A DNA stretch of 41,286 bases from a virus (taxonomy: Duplodnaviria > Heunggongvirae > Uroviricota > Caudoviricetes), in the IMG/VR virus record IMGVR_UViG_2851933302_000002, positions 1-41,286 of that record. One strand, given 5' to 3'. The stretch's first letter is position 1; each line of letters opens with the position of its first letter. Positions 32,221 through 41,286 of this stretch are shown here, one piece after another. Under the pieces are notes generated by a model. That model saw nothing but the letters and a program-made list of their open reading frames with translations. It did not search any database and was not told the DNA's origin. The translations under genes and the position numbers were made by a program.

Positions 32221-32660
32221 ACTTTGCCCTCAGACTGGCGCGTGAGATGGGGAGACCCGACTGGCGCGCCATGCTTGCCGGGATGACATCCACCGAATAT
32301 GCCGACTGGCACCGTTTTTACCGCACGCATTATTTTCAGGATACCCAGCTGGATATGCATTTTTCCGGGCTGACGTACGCTGTACTCAGCCTGTTTTTTT
32401 GCGATCCGGATATGCATCCCTCTGATTTCAGTCTGCTTGTCCCCCGGCATGAGGAAGAGCAGGTGGAGAGGCCGGATGAGGACAAAATGCTGATGCAGAA
32501 AGCGGCAGGACTTGCCGGAGGCGTCCGGTTCGGTGGGGACGGAGGGCGCGATATTTTATCGTCTGCGGATGTGGCGGATGTCATGGTGGATGATGCCGCA
32601 TTAATGATGGCTTCAGCGGGGATTCCGGGAGGTGTGAGATATGTCCCAGCCGGTTGGTGA
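31789..32660 (+). CDS. GT: Tail assembly chaperone gpGT (product of programmed -1 ribosomal frameshift at GGGAAAG)
   Basis: Slippery sequence G GGA AAG at 32196-32202 in the G frame. A -1 slip moves into the T frame (…[26 protein letters not shown]…), which runs to 32660. Same arrangement as lambda G/T. Confidence 0.8.
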
Positions 32661-35600
32661 TCTTGTTATTGACCTTAGTCTGGATGCTGTCCGTTTCGAT
32701 GAGCAGATGAGCCGGGTAAGGCGTCATTTTTCAGGTCTGGATACCGACGCCAGAAAAACCGCCAGTGCTGTTGAACAGGGCCTGAGCCGCCAGGCGCTGG
32801 CTGCACAAAAAGCCGGGATTTCCGTCGGGCAGTATAAAGCGGCCATGCGAACCCTGCCCGCACAGTTTACGGATATCGCCACGCAGCTTGCCGGTGGTCA
32901 GAATCCCTGGCTGATCCTGCTGCAACAGGGCGGTCAGGTGAAGGACTCCTTCGGCGGGATGATCCCCATGTTCAGGGGGCTTGCCGGTGCGATCACCCTG
33001 CCGATGGTCGGGGTCACCTCGCTGGCGGTGGCGACAGGTGCGCTGGTGTACGCCTGGTACCAGGGAGATTCCACGCTTTCAGCGTTTAATAAAACCCTGG
33101 TTCTTTCCGGTAATCAGTCCGGACTGACTGCCGATCGCATGCTGACGCTCTCCAGAGCCGGACAGGCCGCAGGGCTGACGTTTAACCAGGCGAGTGAGTC
33201 ACTGGCAGCCATGGTGAATGCCGGTGTGCGTGGTGGTGAACAGTTTGATGCCATCAACCAGAGTGTCGCGCGTTTTGCTTCTGCATCCGGTGTGGAGGTG
33301 GACAAGGTTGCAGAGGCTTTCGGAAAACTGACCACTGACCCGACGTCGGGGCTGATTGCGATGGCGAAGCAGTTCCATAACGTGACGGCGGAGCAGATTG
33401 CGTATGTTGCTCAGTTGCAGCGTTCCGGCGATGAAACCGGGGCATTGCAGGCGGCGAACGAGGCCGCAACGAAAGGGTTTGATGACCAGACCCGCCGCCT
33501 GAAAGAGAACATGGGCACGCTGGAGACCTGGGCAGACAGGACAGCGCGGGCATTCAAATCCATGTGGGATGCGGTGCTGGATATTGGTCGTCCTGATACC
33601 GCGCAGGAGATGCTGATTAAGGCAGAGGCTGCGTTTAAGAAAGCAGACGACATCTGGAATCTGCGCAAGGATGATTATTTTGTTAACGATGAAGCGCGGG
33701 CGCGTTACTGGGATGATCGTGAAAAGGCCCGTCTTGCGCTTGAAGCCGCCCGAAAGAAGGCTGAGCAGCAGACTCAACAGGACAAAAATGCGCAGCAGCA
33801 GAGCGATACCGAAGCGTCACGGCTGAAATATACCGAAGAGGCGCAGAAGGCTTACGAACGGCTGCAGACGCCGCTGGAGAAATATACCGCCCGTCAGGAA
33901 GAACTGAACAAGGCACTGAAAGACGGGAAAATCCTGCAGGCGGATTACAACACGCTGATGGCGGCGGCGAAAAAGGATTATGAAGCGACGCTGAAAAAGC
34001 CGAAACAGTCCGGCGTGAAGGTGTCTGCGGGCGATCGTCAGGAAGACAGTGCTCATGCTGCCCTGCTGACGCTTCAGGCAGAACTCCGGACGCTGGAGAA
34101 GCATGCCGGAGCGAATGAGAAAATCAGCCAGCAGCGCCGGGATTTGTGGAAGGCAGAAAGTCAGTTCGCGGTACTGGAGGAGGCGGCACAACGTCGCCAG
34201 CTGTCCGCACAGGAGAAATCCCTGCTGGCGCATAAAGATGAGACGCTGGAGTACAAACGCCAGCTGGCTGCACTTGGCGACAAGGTTACGTATCAGGAGC
34301 GCCTGAACGCGCTGGCGCAGCAGGCGGATAAATTCGCACAGCAGCAACGGGCAAAACGGGCCGCCATTGATGCAAAAAACCGGGGGCTGACTGACCGGCA
34401 GGCAGCGCGGGAAGCCACGGAACAGCGCCTGAAGGAACAGTATGGCGATAATCCTCTGGCGCTGAATAACGTCATGTCAGAGCAGAAAAAGACCTGGGCG
34501 GCTGAAGACCAGCTTCGCGGGAGCTGGATGGCAGGCCTGAAGTCCGGCTGGAGTGAGTGGGAAGAGAGCGCCACGGACAGTATGTCGCAGGTAAAAAGTG
34601 CAGCCACGCAGACCTTTGATGGTATTGCACAGAATATGGCGGCGATGCTGACCGGCAGTGAGCAGAACTGGCGCAGCTTCACCCGCTCCGTGCTGTCCAT
34701 GATGACAGAAATTCTGCTTAAGCAGGCAATGGTGGGGATTGTCGGGAGTATCGGCAGCGCTATTGGCGGGGCTGTTGGTGGCGGCGCATCCGCGTCAGGC
34801 GGTACAGCCATTCAGGCAGCTGCGGCGAAATTCCATTTTGCGACCGGAGGATTTACGGGAACCGGCGGCAAATATGAGCCAGCGGGGATTGTTCACCGTG
34901 GTGAATTTGTCTTCACGAAGGAGGCGACCAGCCGGATTGGTGTCGGCAACCTGTATCGTCTGATGCGCGGGTATGCGGAAGGTGGTTATGTCGGCGGTGC
35001 CGGAAGTCCGGCGCAGATGCGGCGGGCGGAAGGTATCCGGTTTGAGCAGAACAACAGCGTGGTGATTCAGAACGACGGTATCAACGGACAGGCCGGGCCG
35101 CAGCTGATGAAAGCGGTGTATGAGATGGCCCGTAAAGGTGCGCAGGATGAGATCCAGTCCGTCACCGACGGCGTGAAGGTAAAAGTGAGCCGTGTTCCTG
35201 ACGGCGTTGCTGAATACAGCGTGTGGGGGCTGAAGCTGCCGACGCTGCGCCAGCGCCTGTTCCGCTGCGTGAGTATCCGTGAGAACGACAACGGCACGTA
35301 TGCCATCACCGCCGTGCAGCATGTACCGGAAAAAGAGGCCATCGTGGATAACGGGGCGCACTTTGACGGCGACCAGAGCGGCACGGTGAACGGGGTCACA
35401 CCGCCAGCAGTGCAGCATCTGACTGCCGAAGTCACCGCAGACAGCGGGGAATACCAGGTGCTGGCGCGCTGGGATACGCCGAAGGTGGTGAAGGGTGTGA
35501 GCTTTATGCTTCGCCTGACCGTGGCAGCGGATGACGGCAGTGAGCGGCTGGTCAGCACGGCCCGGACGACGGAAACCACATACCGCTTCACGCAACTGGC

Positions 35601-36945
35601 GCTGGGAAACTACAGGCTGACAGTCCGGGCGGCAAATGCCTGGGGGCAGCAGGGCGATCCGGCATCGGTATCGTTCCGGATTGCCGCCCCGGCAGCGCCG
35701 TCGCGGATTGAGCTGACGCCGGGCTATTTTCAGATAACTGCCACGCCGCATCTTGCGGTTTATGATCCGACGGTACAGTTTGAGTTCTGGTTCTCGGAAA
35801 CGCGGATTACCGATATCAGGCAGGTTGAAACCACAGCCCGCTACCTTGGCACGGGGCTGTACTGGATAGCCGCCAGTATCAATATCAAACCGGGCCATGA
35901 TTATTACTTTTATATCCGCAGTGTGAACACCGTTGGCAAATCGGCATTCGTGGAGGCCGTCGGTCGGGCGAGCGATGATGCGGAAGGTTACCTGGATTTT
36001 TTCAAAGGCAAGATAACCGAATCCCATCTCGGTAAAGAGCTGCTGAAAAAAGTCGACCTGACGGAGGATAACGCCAGCAGACTGGATGAGTTTTCGAAAG
36101 AGTGGAAGGACGCTAACGATAAATGGAATGCTATGTGGGGCGTCAAAATTGAGCAGACCAAAGACGGCAAACATTATGTCGCGGGTATTGGCCTCAGCAT
36201 GGAGGACACGGAGGAAGGCAAGCTGAGCCAGTTTCTGGTTGCCGCCAATCGTATCGCGTTTATTGACCCGGCAAACGGGAATGAAACGCCGATGTTTGTG
36301 GCGCAGGGCAACCAGATATTCATGAACGACGTGTTCCTGAAACGCCTGACGGCTCCCACCATTACCAGCGGTGGAAATCCGCCGGCATTTTCCCTGACAC
36401 CGGACGGAAAGCTGACCGCTAAAAATGCGGATATCAGCGGTAATGTGAATGCAAATTCAGGGACGCTCAACAACGTCACGATTAACGAGAACTGTCGGGT
36501 TCTGGGAAAACTGTCCGCGAACCAGATTGAAGGCGATCTCGTTAAAACAGTGGGCAAAGCTTTCCCCCGGGACTCCCGTGCACCGGAGCGGTGGCCATCA
36601 GGGACCATTACCGTCAGGGTTTATGACGATCAGCCGTTTGACCGGCAAATTGTTATTCCGGCGGTGGCTTTCAGCGGTGCCAGACATGAGCGGGAGAATA
36701 GCGATACTTATTCGTCATGCCGCCTGATAGTGAAGAAAAACGGGGCTGAAATTTATAACCGAACGGCTCTGGATAATACGCTGATATACACGGGTGTTAT
36801 TGATATGCCTGCAGGCAGTGGCGTAATGACACTGGAGTTTTCTGTATCAGCATGGTGGGTAAATGGTTGGTATCCCACAGCAAGTATCAGCGATTTGCTG
36901 GTTGTTGTGATGAAGAAAGCCACTGCAGGCATCACGATTAGCTGA
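32641..36945 (+). CDS. In-frame fusion of tape measure protein (gpH, N-terminal about 840 aa) to the C-terminal half of central tail fibre/host specificity protein (gpJ); deletion derivative
   Basis: 1434-aa ORF. The first about 840 aa track recalled lambda gpH nearly residue by residue up to …[10 protein letters not shown]. The sequence then continues …[23 protein letters not shown]… through Fn3-like and C-terminal receptor-binding regions that match recalled lambda gpJ. No M, L, K or I genes are present anywhere in the window. Confidence 0.85.
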
Positions 36946-36964
36946 ATTTTATAACCCAGATACG

Positions 36965-36988
36965 GGCGCCAGAAATGGCGCCTTTTTT
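36965..36988 (+). terminator. Rho-independent terminator after the H-J fusion gene
   Basis: GGCGCC-AGAAAT-GGCGCC hairpin followed by TTTTTT. Confidence 0.8.
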
Positions 36989-37012
36989 ATTGCAGAAAAG
37001 CGAGAGGTAATT

Positions 37013-37612
37013 ATGCGTAAATTATGTGCTGTTATTCTGTCCGCAGTAGTCTGGCTGGTTGCCGCTGGTACGCCAGCGAGTGCAGCAGAGCATCAGTCCA
37101 CACTAAGCTCCGGGTATATTCAGTCCCATACTGATATGCCCGGCAACGATGACCTGAAGGGCATTAACGTGAAATACCGTTATGAATTTACGGACACGCT
37201 GGGGCTGGTGACGTCATTCAGTTATGCTGGAGACAAGAATCGCCAGATTACCCGTTACAGTGATACCCGCTGGCATGAAGATTCAGTGCGTAACCGCTGG
37301 TTCAGCATGATGGCGGGGCCATCTGTGCGCGTGAATGAGTGGTTCAGCGCATATGCGATGGCGGGTGTGGCTTACAGCCGTGTTTCGACTTTCTCCGGGG
37401 ATTATCTCCGCGTAACTGACAACAAGGGGAAAACGCACGATGTGCTGACCGCAAGTGATGATGGTCGCCACAGTAACACGTCTCTGGCGTGGGGGGCTGG
37501 CGTGCAGTTTAACCCGACCGAATCCGTGGCCATTGATATTGCTTATGAAGGCTCCGGCAGTGGTGACTGGCGCACTGACGGTTTTATCGTGGGTGTCGGT
37601 TATAAATTCTGA
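37013..37612 (+). CDS. lom: Outer membrane protein Lom (Ail/PagC/OmpX family)
   Basis: 199-aa ORF with a signal peptide and a beta-barrel pattern ending in ...GVGYKF. Position after J as in lambda. Confidence 0.9.
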
Positions 37613-37628
37613 TTAGCAGTGTTATGAC

Positions 37629-37655
37629 AGCCCGCATATTCTGGCGGGCTTTTTT
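37629..37655 (+). terminator. Rho-independent terminator after lom
   Basis: AGCCCGC-ATATTCTG-GCGGGCT hairpin followed by TTTTT. Confidence 0.8.
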
Positions 37656-37666
37656 GTGGGGTGGAT

Positions 37667-39496
37667 ATGGCAGCAGTAAAAATCTCAGGTGTGCTGAAAG
37701 ATGGTGCGGGAAAACCAATACAGAACTGCACTATTCAACTGAAGGCAAAACGTAACAGCACAACGGTTGTGGTGAACACGGTGGCCTCAGAAAATCCGGA
37801 TGAAGCTGGACGTTACAGCATGGATGTTGAGTATGGTCAGTACAGCGTCACCCTGCTGGTTGAAGGTTTTCCGCCTTCACATGCCGGGACCATTACCGTT
37901 TATGAAGGTTCCAGACCAGGTACGCTGAATGATTTTCTGACTGCCCCCGACGAAGGCGACCTGAAGCCAGATGTGGTGAAACGATTTGAAGATTTGACAA
38001 GTCAGGCGCGACGAAGTGCAGATGTGGCAATATCAGCGACAAAAAGGGCAGAAGCGTTACTGTCTGAAATGCAGGGAATAGCCGATAGTTTTCCCGGTTT
38101 GCGCTTTGAGAACTTTGACGACATCGTGAGTCGTTGCACTACTGCAATGTTAAAACTGGAACAACCCGAGGTTGTTGATACATCAATATCTTTAAAAATA
38201 AAAGAAAATATCGATTTTAATTATGTCGGTGCAGTTAACGGATATTGCGATATTTCTGAACCAGAAAAGTATAAAGTCGAAATGTATGCTTATACAACCG
38301 GAGAGTATTTTAACGGCGACGCTAATTTGAATAGTGACGGAACTTTCTATTTCAGACGTTGCTGGACGGGAGCAAAACAGTTTCGTCTTATTCGGATTGA
38401 GGATAATGCGTGGATCACAACGCTGGAGTTTCCACTGCTCATTCGTAGCTACTGGATGCCGGAGGACGCAGACCCCGAAGTGATCAGGGTGATGAAAGAT
38501 CGGTGTTACACGTATGACCAGGCGCTGGCAGCACTGGCGTTGATGGTTCAGCGACATGAGGCTGTAGAAAGATACGTTGCGGGCTTGTGTGCGCTTGTTG
38601 ATGAAAACGGTGGAGTAAAGTTTTTTGTTAACAGGCTGTCTGCCATGTCACCGCGTACCTATTACCGCTTGGGCAATGCGGCATGGGTTTATTATGCTCT
38701 TGCTTTCTATCTGGAGAAGTATCCGGACGGTACTCAGACTGCGCGGGTCAGAGAAAAGCTATTGGCAGGCATTGCCTGGCTGGATACTTTTCTGGTGAGC
38801 ACACCAGGCGACCTGCGTGAAGGCCTGTATAAAGGGGGGCAGGGGCGTTATGTGGACGGCAATTTTGATGAAACTTTCGTCGCCGAATGGTGCGCACTGG
38901 AGCATAACGTTGATATCTGGTTTTTGTTTGAACTGATGGGACGGCTGGGATTTGACGGTTTCAGTGAGCGGGCTGACAGGCTGGCAAAGAGTATCATCAG
39001 AGGTCTGTGGGTGGAAGATGAAGGCCGATTTCGACAGGGGGTTCATTCAACCCACTATGACAACGCAGCGGCGCTGGATCAGTCTTCCTGGGGCGGATTG
39101 TTTGTTGCCAATATTGATGCTGAGAAAGCGGCTAAGTGCCGAAAATATATGGGGCGTTTTTTATTTGGTACGAGGGAAACCACGGGTTACACACCGTACC
39201 ACCCTGATTATGGTTATAGTGGTCACAGCCGTGGCGTGTGGGTGGAAGGAACGGCAGGTGTGGCACTTTTTGAGCGCAAGCTGGGTAATGAGCTGAATGC
39301 GGTGAATCTTGTGGCAGCAATGGCTCCACTTTTTAATGAGTACGGTTATCGTGATTCTTGCGATAACCTGGCATACGATGTGCTGCCTTCCTGGCCATCA
39401 ACAACAAACACTGCCTGGATCATTCTGGCTGTAAAGCCAGATAATTTCTGGTTAGTGGATTCGCCAGAAATGGATGTAGGGACAATCCGCTATTGA
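37667..39496 (+). CDS. stf: Side tail fibre-like protein: Stf N-terminal tail-attachment domain fused to an unrelated C-terminal domain, possibly enzymatic
   Basis: The N-terminal about 100 aa (MAAVKISGVLKDGAGKPIQNCTIQLKAKRNSTTVVVNTV…GFPPSHAGTITVYEGS) match the recalled lambda Stf N-terminus. The remaining about 500 aa lack the fibrous repeats of lambda Stf and are rich in Trp/Tyr helical segments (YYRLGNAAWVYYALAFYLEKY, WVEGTAGVALFE), suggestive of an alpha/alpha-toroid fold. An AT-rich stretch (38160-38420) marks the junction. Confidence 0.7.
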   Translation: MAAVKISGVLKDGAGKPIQNCTIQLKAKRNSTTVVVNTVASENPDEAGRYSMDVEYGQYSVTLLVEGFPPSHAGTITVYEGSRPGTLNDFLTAPDEGDLKPDVVKRFEDLTSQARRSADVAISATKRAEALLSEMQGIADSFPGLRFENFDDIVSRCTTAMLKLEQPEVVDTSISLKIKENIDFNYVGAVNGYCDISEPEKYKVEMYAYTTGEYFNGDANLNSDGTFYFRRCWTGAKQFRLIRIEDNAWITTLEFPLLIRSYWMPEDADPEVIRVMKDRCYTYDQALAALALMVQRHEAVERYVAGLCALVDENGGVKFFVNRLSAMSPRTYYRLGNAAWVYYALAFYLEKYPDGTQTARVREKLLAGIAWLDTFLVSTPGDLREGLYKGGQGRYVDGNFDETFVAEWCALEHNVDIWFLFELMGRLGFDGFSERADRLAKSIIRGLWVEDEGRFRQGVHSTHYDNAAALDQSSWGGLFVANIDAEKAAKCRKYMGRFLFGTRETTGYTPYHPDYGYSGHSRGVWVEGTAGVALFERKLGNELNAVNLVAAMAPLFNEYGYRDSCDNLAYDVLPSWPSTTNTAWIILAVKPDNFWLVDSPEMDVGTIRY

Positions 39497-39823
39497 CTCT
39501 CTTGTTGTTTGATAAACCGACAAAAGGATAAATATCAGCGATCCATTCTGTGCTGTTTGATTGTGCGCTCCCCGCTCAGAATTGCGCGTCAATTAGCCTA
39601 TAAAAAATCGCGAAGATACAATACGTACTTCATTGCGCTTGAACACCCCAGGCATAATATCGCTGGATTGAAATGTTCGGACATGGCAAGCGAATGAATA
39701 TGCCGTGGTGGGGCGGTTTTGATCCGCGCGCGTGGGATGTGGCAAGCCTGATGGATTTTGCTGTGCCGGTGGTGGCGTGTCTGCTGGTCTGGCTGTTGGT
39801 TAATCGTGGGTGAAAAAAGGTGA

Positions 39824-39952
39824 GCTGTATATGCAACGGAGGAAGAAACCTCGTTGCTGGAAGCCTGGAAAAAGTATCGGGTGTTGCTGAACCGTGTTGA
39901 TACATCAACTGCCCCTGATATTGAGTGGCCTGTGAACCCTGTCAGGGAGTAA
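39824..39952 (+). pseudogene. Tail fibre assembly protein (Tfa) 3' remnant
   Basis: Frame without a start codon encodes …[38 protein letters not shown], the conserved Tfa C-terminus. Duplicated as the 3' end of the intact-looking gene at 40732..41001. Confidence 0.6.
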
Positions 39953-40006
39953 TCATTGGGATTATGCCGCAGCACGTCTTAAGCAAGAACGTGCTGCGGT
40001 TGGATG

Positions 40007-40675
40007 CTATTTTTTCCCTGAAGCGGAAAACATTACTACAGTACCTTGAACCTTGGTTTTAACATTCTCGAAATGCTCTGAGAGTATATGTGTTAAGCCT
40101 TCTTCGGAATCTTTTGTGTTTGAAAAGATGCCTTTCTGATTGTAAATGCGCATCAGTTTTTGACCGAAGCTATTGTGCACAACGCCGTCACCAAGAATTG
40201 TGGCTCCGTATAGAGTTCCATCGTCAGTTAAGGCCTGCGCCGCATTGCGTATTACACAGCTTTTTGTAGATATATTTCCAGGCAGGCAGTGAAGAAGGTA
40301 AAACATGGAAATGGAATCAAATTGACCATGTAACGCCGCGGGATAAGGATCAAAAACATCATGGCTAATTTTATGTTTAATTTTTGATTCCCCAGCCCTT
40401 GTCGATGCCGCGTTCAGGCTAGCTTCGTTCAAATCCATTAAAGATATCAGACTACTCTCAGGTACGTGAGTAAGGTAAAACCCAGTTCCAACACCAATAT
40501 CCAGATGGTTGTTACCTAAATGTTCCAGAAAGTGTGGAAGAAGGTGTTCCTTTGTAGGACATCCCCATGCAAGCCGATTTGATACTCCCAAAACCCACCA
40601 GTCATAAAGCTTTAGGGTAAGTGGTGTGTAAATTTTAGCCCCATCATCTGTGTTTTTTTTCATTAATTTCACCAT
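40007..40675 (-). CDS. Class I SAM-dependent methyltransferase (small-molecule/RNA type), cargo gene
   Basis: 222-aa ORF on the opposite strand to the tail genes. Motif I HLDIGVGTGFY with a Rossmann-fold pattern. Flanked by direct repeats of the tfa 3' end. Confidence 0.7.
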   Translation of the reverse strand: MVKLMKKNTDDGAKIYTPLTLKLYDWWVLGVSNRLAWGCPTKEHLLPHFLEHLGNNHLDIGVGTGFYLTHVPESSLISLMDLNEASLNAASTRAGESKIKHKISHDVFDPYPAALHGQFDSISMFYLLHCLPGNISTKSCVIRNAAQALTDDGTLYGATILGDGVVHNSFGQKLMRIYNQKGIFSNTKDSEEGLTHILSEHFENVKTKVQGTVVMFSASGKK

Positions 40676-40731
40676 GTTATAGTTTTATTTGTGAATTAAA
40701 TCAATTATGGCGATGAATTACAAGGGGTTAA

Positions 40732-41001
40732 ATGCTGCCGCAGCATAGCGATATTGAAATAGCCTGGTATGCTTCGATACAGCAGGAGCCGAATGGCTGG
40801 AAGACCGTCACCACACAGTTCTACATCCAGGAATTCAGTGAGTATATTGCGCCACTGCAGGATGCTGTAGATCTGGAAATCGCAACGGAGGAAGAAAGAT
40901 CGTTGCTGGAGGCATGGAATAAATATCGGGTATTGTTGAATCGTGTTGATACATCAACTGCACCTGATATTGAGTGGCCTGCAAATCCTGTCAGGGAGTA
41001 A
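40732..41001 (+). CDS. Tail fibre assembly protein (Tfa-like), short form
   Basis: 89-aa ORF whose C-terminus ([32 protein letters not shown]) is the conserved Tfa C-terminal motif. May be N-terminally truncated relative to canonical Tfa of about 190 aa. Confidence 0.55.
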
Positions 41002-41004
41002 TCA

Positions 41005-41286
41005 TTGGGATTATGCCGCAGACACGTCGTATGCAGGAACGTGCTGCGGTTAGTTTGTGAGCTTTCGATAGTGGTTGTTATTTTTGCCCTTATTTGTTCC
41101 GGAGGCCCTGGTTCAATGGTCCGTCTGCCCCCTGTGGTGATGTCAGCAAAATCAGCCACTGCGCGAACCACAATAGCCCGGGAAGATGCTGAAGATCACC
41201 AGGTAAAGCTGTCAGCGCAGAAACTGGAAGAACTGCTCGCATCAATGGTTAAGGATGAGGTTGATCGCAATGATGGGATTTATTGA
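41005..41286 (+). CDS. Hypothetical protein at window edge
   Basis: 93-aa ORF ending at the last base of the window. The likely start is an internal Met (MVRLPP…). Function unknown. Confidence 0.3.
   Translation: MGLCRRHVVCRNVLRLVCELSIVVVIFALICSGGPGSMVRLPPVVMSAKSATARTTIAREDAEDHQVKLSAQKLEELLASMVKDEVDRNDGIY

Follow-up and report, generated by a model that had tools for sequence, protein, structure and literature searches.

The window analysed here is a stretch of 41,286 nucleotides (nt) from a virus of the Caudoviricetes (IMG/VR record IMGVR_UViG_2851933302_000002), and its last 5 kb are the right arm of a lambdoid prophage. Near the end of this arm a ybcY-type gene for a class I S-adenosylmethionine (SAM)-dependent methyltransferase (MTase) lies between two direct repeats of the 3' end of a tail-fibre assembly gene (tfa), the second of which overlaps a truncated tfa gene, tfaX. 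Very probably the region represents a cargo block known from lambdoid prophages, ybcY-tfaX, with an origin by gene capture and fibre-module shuffling as proposed below. The core of the locus has the following features.

39833-40001, plus strand: direct repeat copy 1, an orphan tfa 3' fragment (39833-39952, last ~40 codons) and a hairpin
39966-40000, no strand assigned: strong hairpin of copy 1, between the convergent tfa fragment and MTase gene
40007-40663, minus strand: ybcY-type class I SAM-dependent MTase, 218 amino acids (aa) from the conserved residue M5, on the basis of Pfam, PHROG 2132 and the family alignment
40676-40731, minus strand: the MTase gene's own upstream region, with candidate sigma70 promoters and 76-84% identity to the upstream DNA of non-phage homologues
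40732-41001, plus strand: tfaX-type 5'-truncated tail-fibre-assembly gene, 89 aa (Caudo_TAP, PHROG 2341)
40882-41051, plus strand: direct repeat copy 2, the tfaX 3' end and a hairpin (41015-41050, with a 1-nt bulge)

The gene between the repeats encodes an MTase that is maintained by selection. As annotated, its open reading frame (ORF) runs from 40007 to 40675 on the minus strand and encodes 222 aa. The earlier note had read it as an oppositely oriented class I MTase, and the Pfam matches bear this out: Methyltransf_12, 23, 25 and 11 are found, and Methyltransf_12, 23 and 11 exceed their cut-offs. PHROG 2132 matches from residue 5 over its full length (profile positions 1-218 of 218, E 1.3e-156). 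The protein has the seven-stranded beta sheet and alternating alpha/beta fold of class I, and the SAM loop of motif I reads LDIGVGTG at residues 58-65, where D59, G61, G63, T64 and G65 are invariant in 37 homologues. It is 100% identical to WP_000239878.1 of Escherichia coli B1172, and the DNA is 98.5% identical to ybcY of E. coli K-12. The annotated start is probably wrong. Since all 36 of 36 relatives and the PHROG profile begin at residue 5 (the second methionine, 40661-40663), the true start is probably 40663, giving 218 aa. The first ATG of the window gene (40673-40675) reads AAG in homologues, where it is part of an AAGGTGA Shine-Dalgarno sequence; the Shine-Dalgarno of the window gene is GGTGA at ~40672-40668 on the minus strand. 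The dN/dS ratio is 0.06-0.21, both among phage copies and against distant homologues, and the gene is therefore maintained by purifying selection. The GC content is 40-43% across 40000-40900, compared with ~50% in the flanks.

The two tfa 3' ends form a single direct repeat of about 170 bp. A repeat search recovered it as two segments offset by a 1-nt insertion or deletion, 39833-39972 against 40882-41021 (140 nt, 91% identity) and 39973-40001 against 41023-41051 (29 nt, 90%). Together they are one repeat with 90-91% identity and a spacing of 1049-1050 bp, containing the last ~120 nt of the tfa frame, the stop codon and the hairpin. Direct tfa repeats around the MTase gene, as claimed in the earlier note, are confirmed by this search; the size of ~130 bp given there was real but too short, as the repeat continues past the tfa stop codon into the hairpin. 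To the left of the repeat, alignment adds ~14 nt of weak homology (from ~39819/40859), broken by a 9-nt gap. The hairpin at 39966-40000 has a folding energy of -28.5 kcal/mol on the plus strand and -25.4 kcal/mol on the minus strand (z -4.2 and -4.6), and it is probably a bidirectional terminator. It accompanies the MTase gene in Turner, PhiR68_2 and O157:H7, and in Turner and O157 the homology begins at 39961-39967.

Repeats in a fibre locus might also be the ends of a switchable cassette, invertible or excisable, of the Gin/Pin/Cin kind. Repeats together with a second tfa copy are a feature of the fibre loci of Mu, P1 and e14, and in Turner and PhiR68_2 the pin invertase gene and ynaE are located between tfa and the ybcY block. 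However, the repeats in the window are direct, and the repeat search of the region found no inverted repeats. There is no invertase ORF at 36000-41286, and the second tfa has the same orientation as the first with no alternative fibre tip before it. The probability of a switchable cassette is close to negligible. Insertion of a transposable element was considered as well and rejected: there is no transposase and no inverted repeat, and the apparent duplication is 170-227 bp of gene sequence rather than a short target-site duplication.

The cargo block is old and widespread. By its sequence the arrangement is one already known, the tfaD-ybcY-tfaX block of the DLP12 prophage of E. coli K-12. The K-12 gene names tfaD, ybcY and tfaX are confirmed in PMC4559166 and PMC3946193, and phage records annotate the same MTase gene as 'YbcY'. 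In chromosomes of the K-12 type the order is a terminase fragment, a tfa fragment, the frameshifted MTase gene on the opposite strand, a partial tfa, appY and ompT. Prevalence was counted in 5426 complete E. coli genomes with a threshold of at least 95% identity for the MTase gene. The gene is present in 3831 of them (~70%), with up to four copies per genome, and the junction of tfa end, hairpin and MTase gene is fully spanned by a 181-nt probe in 3118. The block occurs in isolated lambdoid phages as well (2G7b, ev243, PhiR26_1 and Turner), and it is found behind various neighbours. A complete stf (1025 aa) and tfa (194 aa) immediately precede it in PhiR26_1, the fibre set before it is a different one in 2G7b and ev243, and in O157:H7 katN- and yciEFG-like stress genes are located between tfa and the block.

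A related phage has the empty state. PhiR49_2 matches window positions 39622-40006 at 96% and then passes straight into the sequence to the right of copy 2 (GTGAxCTTTCGATAGTG). It has a single copy of the tfa end and hairpin and no MTase gene, and the same empty junction is spanned in 470 genomes. The earlier note had proposed comparison with related prophages lacking the insertion, and PhiR49_2 is such a phage, with the same left flank. The note would have been refuted by the MTase gene being a conserved core gene of the fibre module; it is not, since it is absent from PhiR49_2 and from the empty junction of the 470 genomes.

Compared with its relatives, the MTase gene behaves like a captured bacterial gene (a moron), and it is cargo rather than a core tail-fibre gene. 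In Salmonella, Enterobacter and Erwinia, homologues with 56-69% identity occur singly among ordinary chromosomal genes. A Citrobacter homologue (68%) adjoins sodC in an apparent prophage remnant, and an 87% homologue is found on a plasmid-like, IS-rich Salmonella contig. The sequence conservation extends into the upstream DNA. Over the 62-69 nt before the MTase start, the window shares 76-84% identity with the genes of Salmonella, Citrobacter and Enterobacter. This homology spans essentially the entire ybcY-tfaX spacer, and the MTase gene would therefore have been captured together with its own control region.

The upstream region contains two overlapping candidate sigma70 promoters on the minus strand. 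The first is TTGTAA (40723-40718) and TTTAAT (40700-40695) with 17 nt between them, and its TTTAAT is nearly invariant across homologues. The second is TTGATT-17-TATAAC (40704-40676), an exact match to the K-12 ybcY motif reported by Shimada et al. in 2014 (PMC3946193). In that study the spacer between K-12 ybcY and tfaX was bound by the RpoD holoenzyme in vitro (SELEX), and it also has an H-NS site. The best-conserved part of the upstream region, ATTGATTTAATTCAC (40691-40703, minus strand), is kept in L011, L017 and L018. It contains TGAnTTAAnTCA, an imperfect palindrome overlapping both candidate hexamers (-10 and -35), which could be an operator for some regulator.

The boundaries of homology distinguish the founding joints of the block from later exchanges. 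In comparison with single-copy and other phages, homology breaks at 40006|40007, exactly at the MTase stop codon. On the other side, the homology of tfaX to full-length tfa begins at 40825, in the middle of tfa (break at 40824|40825), and runs for 227 bp in DNA. Both of these primary joints are outside the repeated sequence, which argues for illegitimate joining and not for insertion by a homologous crossover. The later sharing boundaries are at other positions: on the left 39833 with PhiR26_1 and K-12, and on the right 40956 or 40978 with all other carriers. These boundaries indicate that the conserved 3' end of tfa was the site of the later exchanges.

The following series of events is proposed for the origin of the block. 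A stand-alone bacterial MTase gene would have been captured with ~70 nt of its own promoter region. It would then have been joined illegitimately just behind the terminator hairpin of a phage tfa, and its other side to the middle of a second tfa, giving the order tfa, hairpin, ybcY (on the opposite strand), tfaX. As a consequence, the two tfa 3' ends are direct repeats. The tfa 3' end is conserved among many fibre modules and is therefore also a landing pad for homologous exchange, and through it the block has been shuffled onto many fibre modules. In the window itself the comparisons show two later changes. The original left stf-tfa was replaced by a different fibre gene, leaving an orphan tfa 3' fragment and a broken small ORF, and the right-hand copy was patched to a complete tfa 3' end.

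The earlier note had instead suggested that the MTase gene was inserted by recombination between tfa copies. In its strict form, this means that the gene entered this prophage lineage recently by homologous recombination between two tfa copies, with the repeats as its footprint. The repeats do bracket the gene, the otherwise similar PhiR49_2 has one copy and no MTase gene, and the mosaic joints fall inside tfa 3' ends. However, the same block is found with 96-99% identity in thousands of genomes and in K-12, and neither of the primary joints, 40006|40007 and 40824|40825, falls inside the homology. The left copy of the window was shortened by the later replacement of the fibre module and was not made by an insertion. 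A recent insertion is unlikely, and as an account of the origin it is largely refuted. The cargo part of the suggestion stands, in view of the empty state in PhiR49_2 and the non-phage relatives, while the mechanism does not, as the block is old and widespread and its founding joints are illegitimate.

The tfaX gene appears to be a non-functional relic. It matches only positions 75-130 of the 131-position Caudo_TAP profile (PF02413, E 6e-25), and positions 1-74 are absent. Its residues 32-89 correspond to residues 137-194 of Tfa, with 88% identity to the PhiR26_1 protein (full Tfa is ~194 aa), and its first 31 codons are unrelated to Tfa. The conserved C-terminal domain of Caudo_TAP is present and the N-terminal fibre-binding part is absent; PGAP labels the B1172 gene 'missing N-terminus'. 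The only lead for the tfaX N-terminus is a weak match to PHROG 3893. The state of the gene varies among carriers. It is frameshifted in 2G7b, has a nonsense codon in K-12 and PhiR68_2, and lacks the last 13 residues and the hairpin in ev243, Turner and PhiR26_1; in a summary count it is broken in three different ways in five of six other lineages. In the window and B1172 it is intact. The complete 3' end with the hairpin is found in 868 of the 5426 genomes, and elsewhere tfaX homology ends at 40956 or 40978.

A function of the MTase, tfaX or both within the tail-fibre module, as modification of the fibre or receptor or as a minimal assembly chaperone, is very unlikely. The MTase gene is always beside tfa sequences, and the tfaX of the window is intact, with the complete 3' end that those 868 genomes share and a length close to that of PHROG 2341. 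However, the MTase gene is on the opposite strand with a putative promoter of its own that is common to non-phage homologues, and the lambdoid phages PhiR49_2 and phiSTEC1575-Stx2k have no MTase gene. The frameshifted, nonsense-mutated and 3'-truncated forms of tfaX are also evidence against such a function, as several of them are from isolated phages, and so is the loss of the first 74 profile positions.

A further alternative is that the tfaX region is a small-RNA gene in which the ORF is incidental. The Rfam family RF02111 ('IS009', a candidate small RNA) matches 40755-40958 with 112.5 bits (E 1e-26) and 39811-39909 with 71.6 bits, and in K-12 RpoD is reported to bind the spacer on its tfaX side. 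However, both matches are under the gathering score of the family, which is 117, and they coincide with tfa coding sequence that is 88% identical at the protein level to full Tfa. The RF02111 family itself appears to be the coding sequence of tfaX and the tfa 3' end rather than a demonstrated structured RNA, and there is little chance that a small-RNA gene explains the region.

Several points weigh against the cargo-block interpretation. A consensus scan of the upstream region finds no excess of promoter-like sites over shuffled sequence, and the promoters of the window are predicted, or bound in vitro in K-12 only. The source of the first 31 tfaX codons (93 nt) was not found in any locus compared. 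The tfaX of the window has kept its 89-aa ORF intact and has a plausible ribosome-binding site; with PHROG 2341 as a family of 88 aa, the short form may therefore have a function. Extant sequences fit either order of events, capture first and then duplication or the reverse.

The left flank of the block consists of the current fibre gene and debris of module exchange. The gene order in the right arm and the remaining features are as follows.

37013-41286: lom (37013-37612), the 611-aa side-tail-fibre gene (37661-39496), 500 bp of broken ORFs, the MTase ORF, tfaX and an ORF fragment
37661-39496, plus strand: intact side-tail-fibre or tailspike gene, 611 aa (Pfam PF08400; PHROG 4128 and 13714 at full length; AF2 and Foldseek)
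39622-39813, plus strand: 3' remnant of a PHROG 1443 small hydrophobic-protein gene (alignment; PHROG 1443 and 34165; comparison with phiSTEC1575-Stx2k)
41005-41286, plus strand: DUF4376 or tail-fibre-related gene fragment (PHROG 7703 and 1141, B1172 annotation), which runs off the window

The 611-aa fibre gene is the current fibre module upstream of the cassette, and it has no cognate full-length tfa. The protein combines an N-terminal adaptor of the lambda-Stf kind (PF08400) with a beta-sandwich and a glycosidase-like (alpha/alpha)6 barrel (AF2 pLDDT 86.5). Its nearest folds in the PDB by Foldseek are GH76, GH78 rhamnosidases, MmpH, GH63 and AGE-type epimerases, and the model suggests a tailspike-like tip that degrades or binds glycans. 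The C-terminal module is found behind at least five different N-terminal adaptor domains. PGAP calls the identical gene in B1172 a truncated pseudogene, though the ORF is intact.

The small ORF and the tfa fragment between the fibre gene and the MTase gene are debris left by further exchange of modules. The earlier note had pointed to a hydrophobic 39-aa ORF before the first repeat. This ORF exists (39694-39813, or 46 aa from the ATG at 39673), but it falls inside the remnant of the PHROG 1443 gene and is not a gene of its own. The PHROG 1443 gene of 2G7b, ev243 and PhiR49 encodes 97-99 aa with a hydrophobic N-terminus and ends at the same TGA (39811-39813). The window remnant has a 1-nt deletion near 39653, and PGAP labels the B1172 copy 'frameshifted'. 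Sequence upstream of 39622 is of other origin and is common to phiSTEC1575-Stx2k, which carries the same fibre gene. The frame of the tfa fragment at 39833-39952 is closed by a stop at 39821-39823 and offers neither ATG nor GTG as a start. It is likewise an orphan in 2G7b, ev243 and PhiR49. Most carriers have a full, functional tfa as their upstream copy, while that of the window is a decayed orphan.

The locus is also present in a finished genome. Positions 35149-41286 are 100% identical to a prophage in the finished E. coli B1172 chromosome, and since all of the features are identical there, an assembly artefact is excluded. The B1172 prophage ends in a truncated ompW adjoining yciE-yciF-yciG-trp, and the fragment at 41005-41286 is more fibre-module debris ahead of this end. 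Further to the left, the window has a 1434-aa ORF (32641-36945) that is an in-frame fusion of the tape-measure protein gpH (~838 aa) with the C-terminal ~598 aa of the tail-tip protein gpJ, with the joint at 35149-35157. Compared with the B1172 prophage, the window lacks ~4 kb with genes M, L, K, I and the 5' half of J. With this fusion and deletion, the prophage of the window should be unable to make a tail tip.

Structural comparison places YbcY among small-molecule and lipid MTases. Its AF2 model (pLDDT 89.8) has a class I fold with an N-terminal helical cap and no extra domain. The best Foldseek match in the PDB is a bacterial phosphatidylethanolamine (PE) N-methyltransferase, PmtA (8ys9; E 5e-12, TM 0.62-0.66), followed by the juvenile-hormone acid MTase (JHAMT), the Plasmodium phosphoethanolamine MTase and many natural-product MTases. 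By sequence or profile, the only PDB entries matched are JHAMT and UbiG, and these weakly, and NCBIfam gives only sub-threshold matches, to PmtA, CpaM and RquA. Against the PmtA equivalog NF045882 the protein scores 17.6 bits, far below the cut-off of 390. The neighbours of the chromosomal homologues include no consistent partner and are different in every genus: a PMT_2 glycosyltransferase and cytochrome b561 in Salmonella, DUF4156 and a hydrolase in Enterobacter, DoxX and an esterase in Erwinia, and sodC in Citrobacter. The literature on ybcY and tfaX yielded no functional study, only gene lists, the SELEX promoter table and work on the tfaX/appY spacer. Membership in a defence system was rejected, since the sole PADLOC match is mad2 at 13.9 bits, which is meaningless.

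Methylation of DNA or RNA, for anti-restriction or epigenetic control, is extremely unlikely as the role of YbcY. Orphan DNA MTases are frequent in phages, and YbcY has a class I SAM fold. However, motif IV of DNA MTases ((D/N/S)PP(Y/F) or PCQ) is absent from the protein and from the family alignment, the 218-aa protein has no additional target-recognition domain, and a DNA MTase is rejected on motifs and fold.

The analysis commits only to YbcY as a predicted cytoplasmic small-molecule or lipid MTase that would be expressed from the prophage. Most likely a sigma70 promoter of its own, in the spacer between ybcY and tfaX, would drive leftward transcription of ybcY apart from the phage late operon, and the enzyme would act on a small molecule or lipid in the cytoplasm of the lysogen or at the inner membrane face. 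A more specific proposal is that YbcY takes part in lysogenic conversion by methylating a lipid of the membrane, for instance the PE head group as in PmtA, or another small molecule of the envelope or redox metabolism. This is unlikely. If it were true, a modified lipid or metabolite of prophage origin would be present in most natural E. coli, and it would have been overlooked because ybcY of K-12 is a frameshifted pseudogene.

The significance of the locus lies in its relics and in its enzyme. The structure is textbook-style phage mosaicism with moron capture, already annotated in E. coli K-12, and its repeats are a by-product of the mosaic exchange of fibre modules. It provides an example, dated by decay, of the conserved tfa 3' end serving as a recombination linker. 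It also cautions against calls of 'tail fiber assembly protein' and Rfam IS009 at this place, which are relics. YbcY is an uncharacterised enzyme that is intact, under purifying selection and present in ~70% of complete E. coli genomes, though null in K-12.

The closest known system is the DLP12 prophage of K-12. Gene order and orientation are the same, window positions 39833-40978 are 96.8% identical in DNA, the ybcY promoter motif is identical, and the hairpin and truncated tfaX are common to both. The two differ in that K-12 ybcY is frameshifted and its tfaX has an internal stop, whereas both ORFs are intact in the window, where the tfaX 3' end with its hairpin is also complete. The flanks are different as well, a terminase fragment and appY-ompT in K-12 and the 611-aa fibre gene and the prophage end at ompW in the window. 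With PmtA (8ys9) and MTases of the UbiE/UbiG/JHAMT type, YbcY shares the class I fold and the N-terminal helical cap.

The block also resembles the exchange of tail-fibre modules in P2, Mu, P1 and the stf-tfa genes of lambda, where homology between unrelated modules starts and stops in the conserved coding sequence of the Tfa C-terminus. In Tfa proteins, as North et al. reportedly described in 2019, the N-terminal domain binds the fibre and is variable, and the C-terminal domain is conserved. The conserved ends of fibre and tfa genes are reportedly the classic exchange points, going back to Haggard-Ljungquist et al. in 1992. Both fit the boundary pattern seen in the window comparisons. The window differs in that two tandemly oriented copies of the conserved end are separated by a non-fibre gene.

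Finally, the MTase gene resembles the morons of lambdoid phages, such as lom and bor of lambda; the moron concept is said to come from the work of Juhala and Hendrix on HK97 and HK022. Like these, it is a single extra gene with a putative promoter of its own, a terminator-like hairpin and an atypical composition, and it is present or absent among related phages (absent in PhiR49_2, present in ev243, PhiR49_1 and 2G7b). It is located between the late-operon genes and the b-region, with lom just upstream. In contrast to the known morons, it is flanked by duplicated tfa ends, and its product is a cytoplasmic-type enzyme rather than a surface protein.

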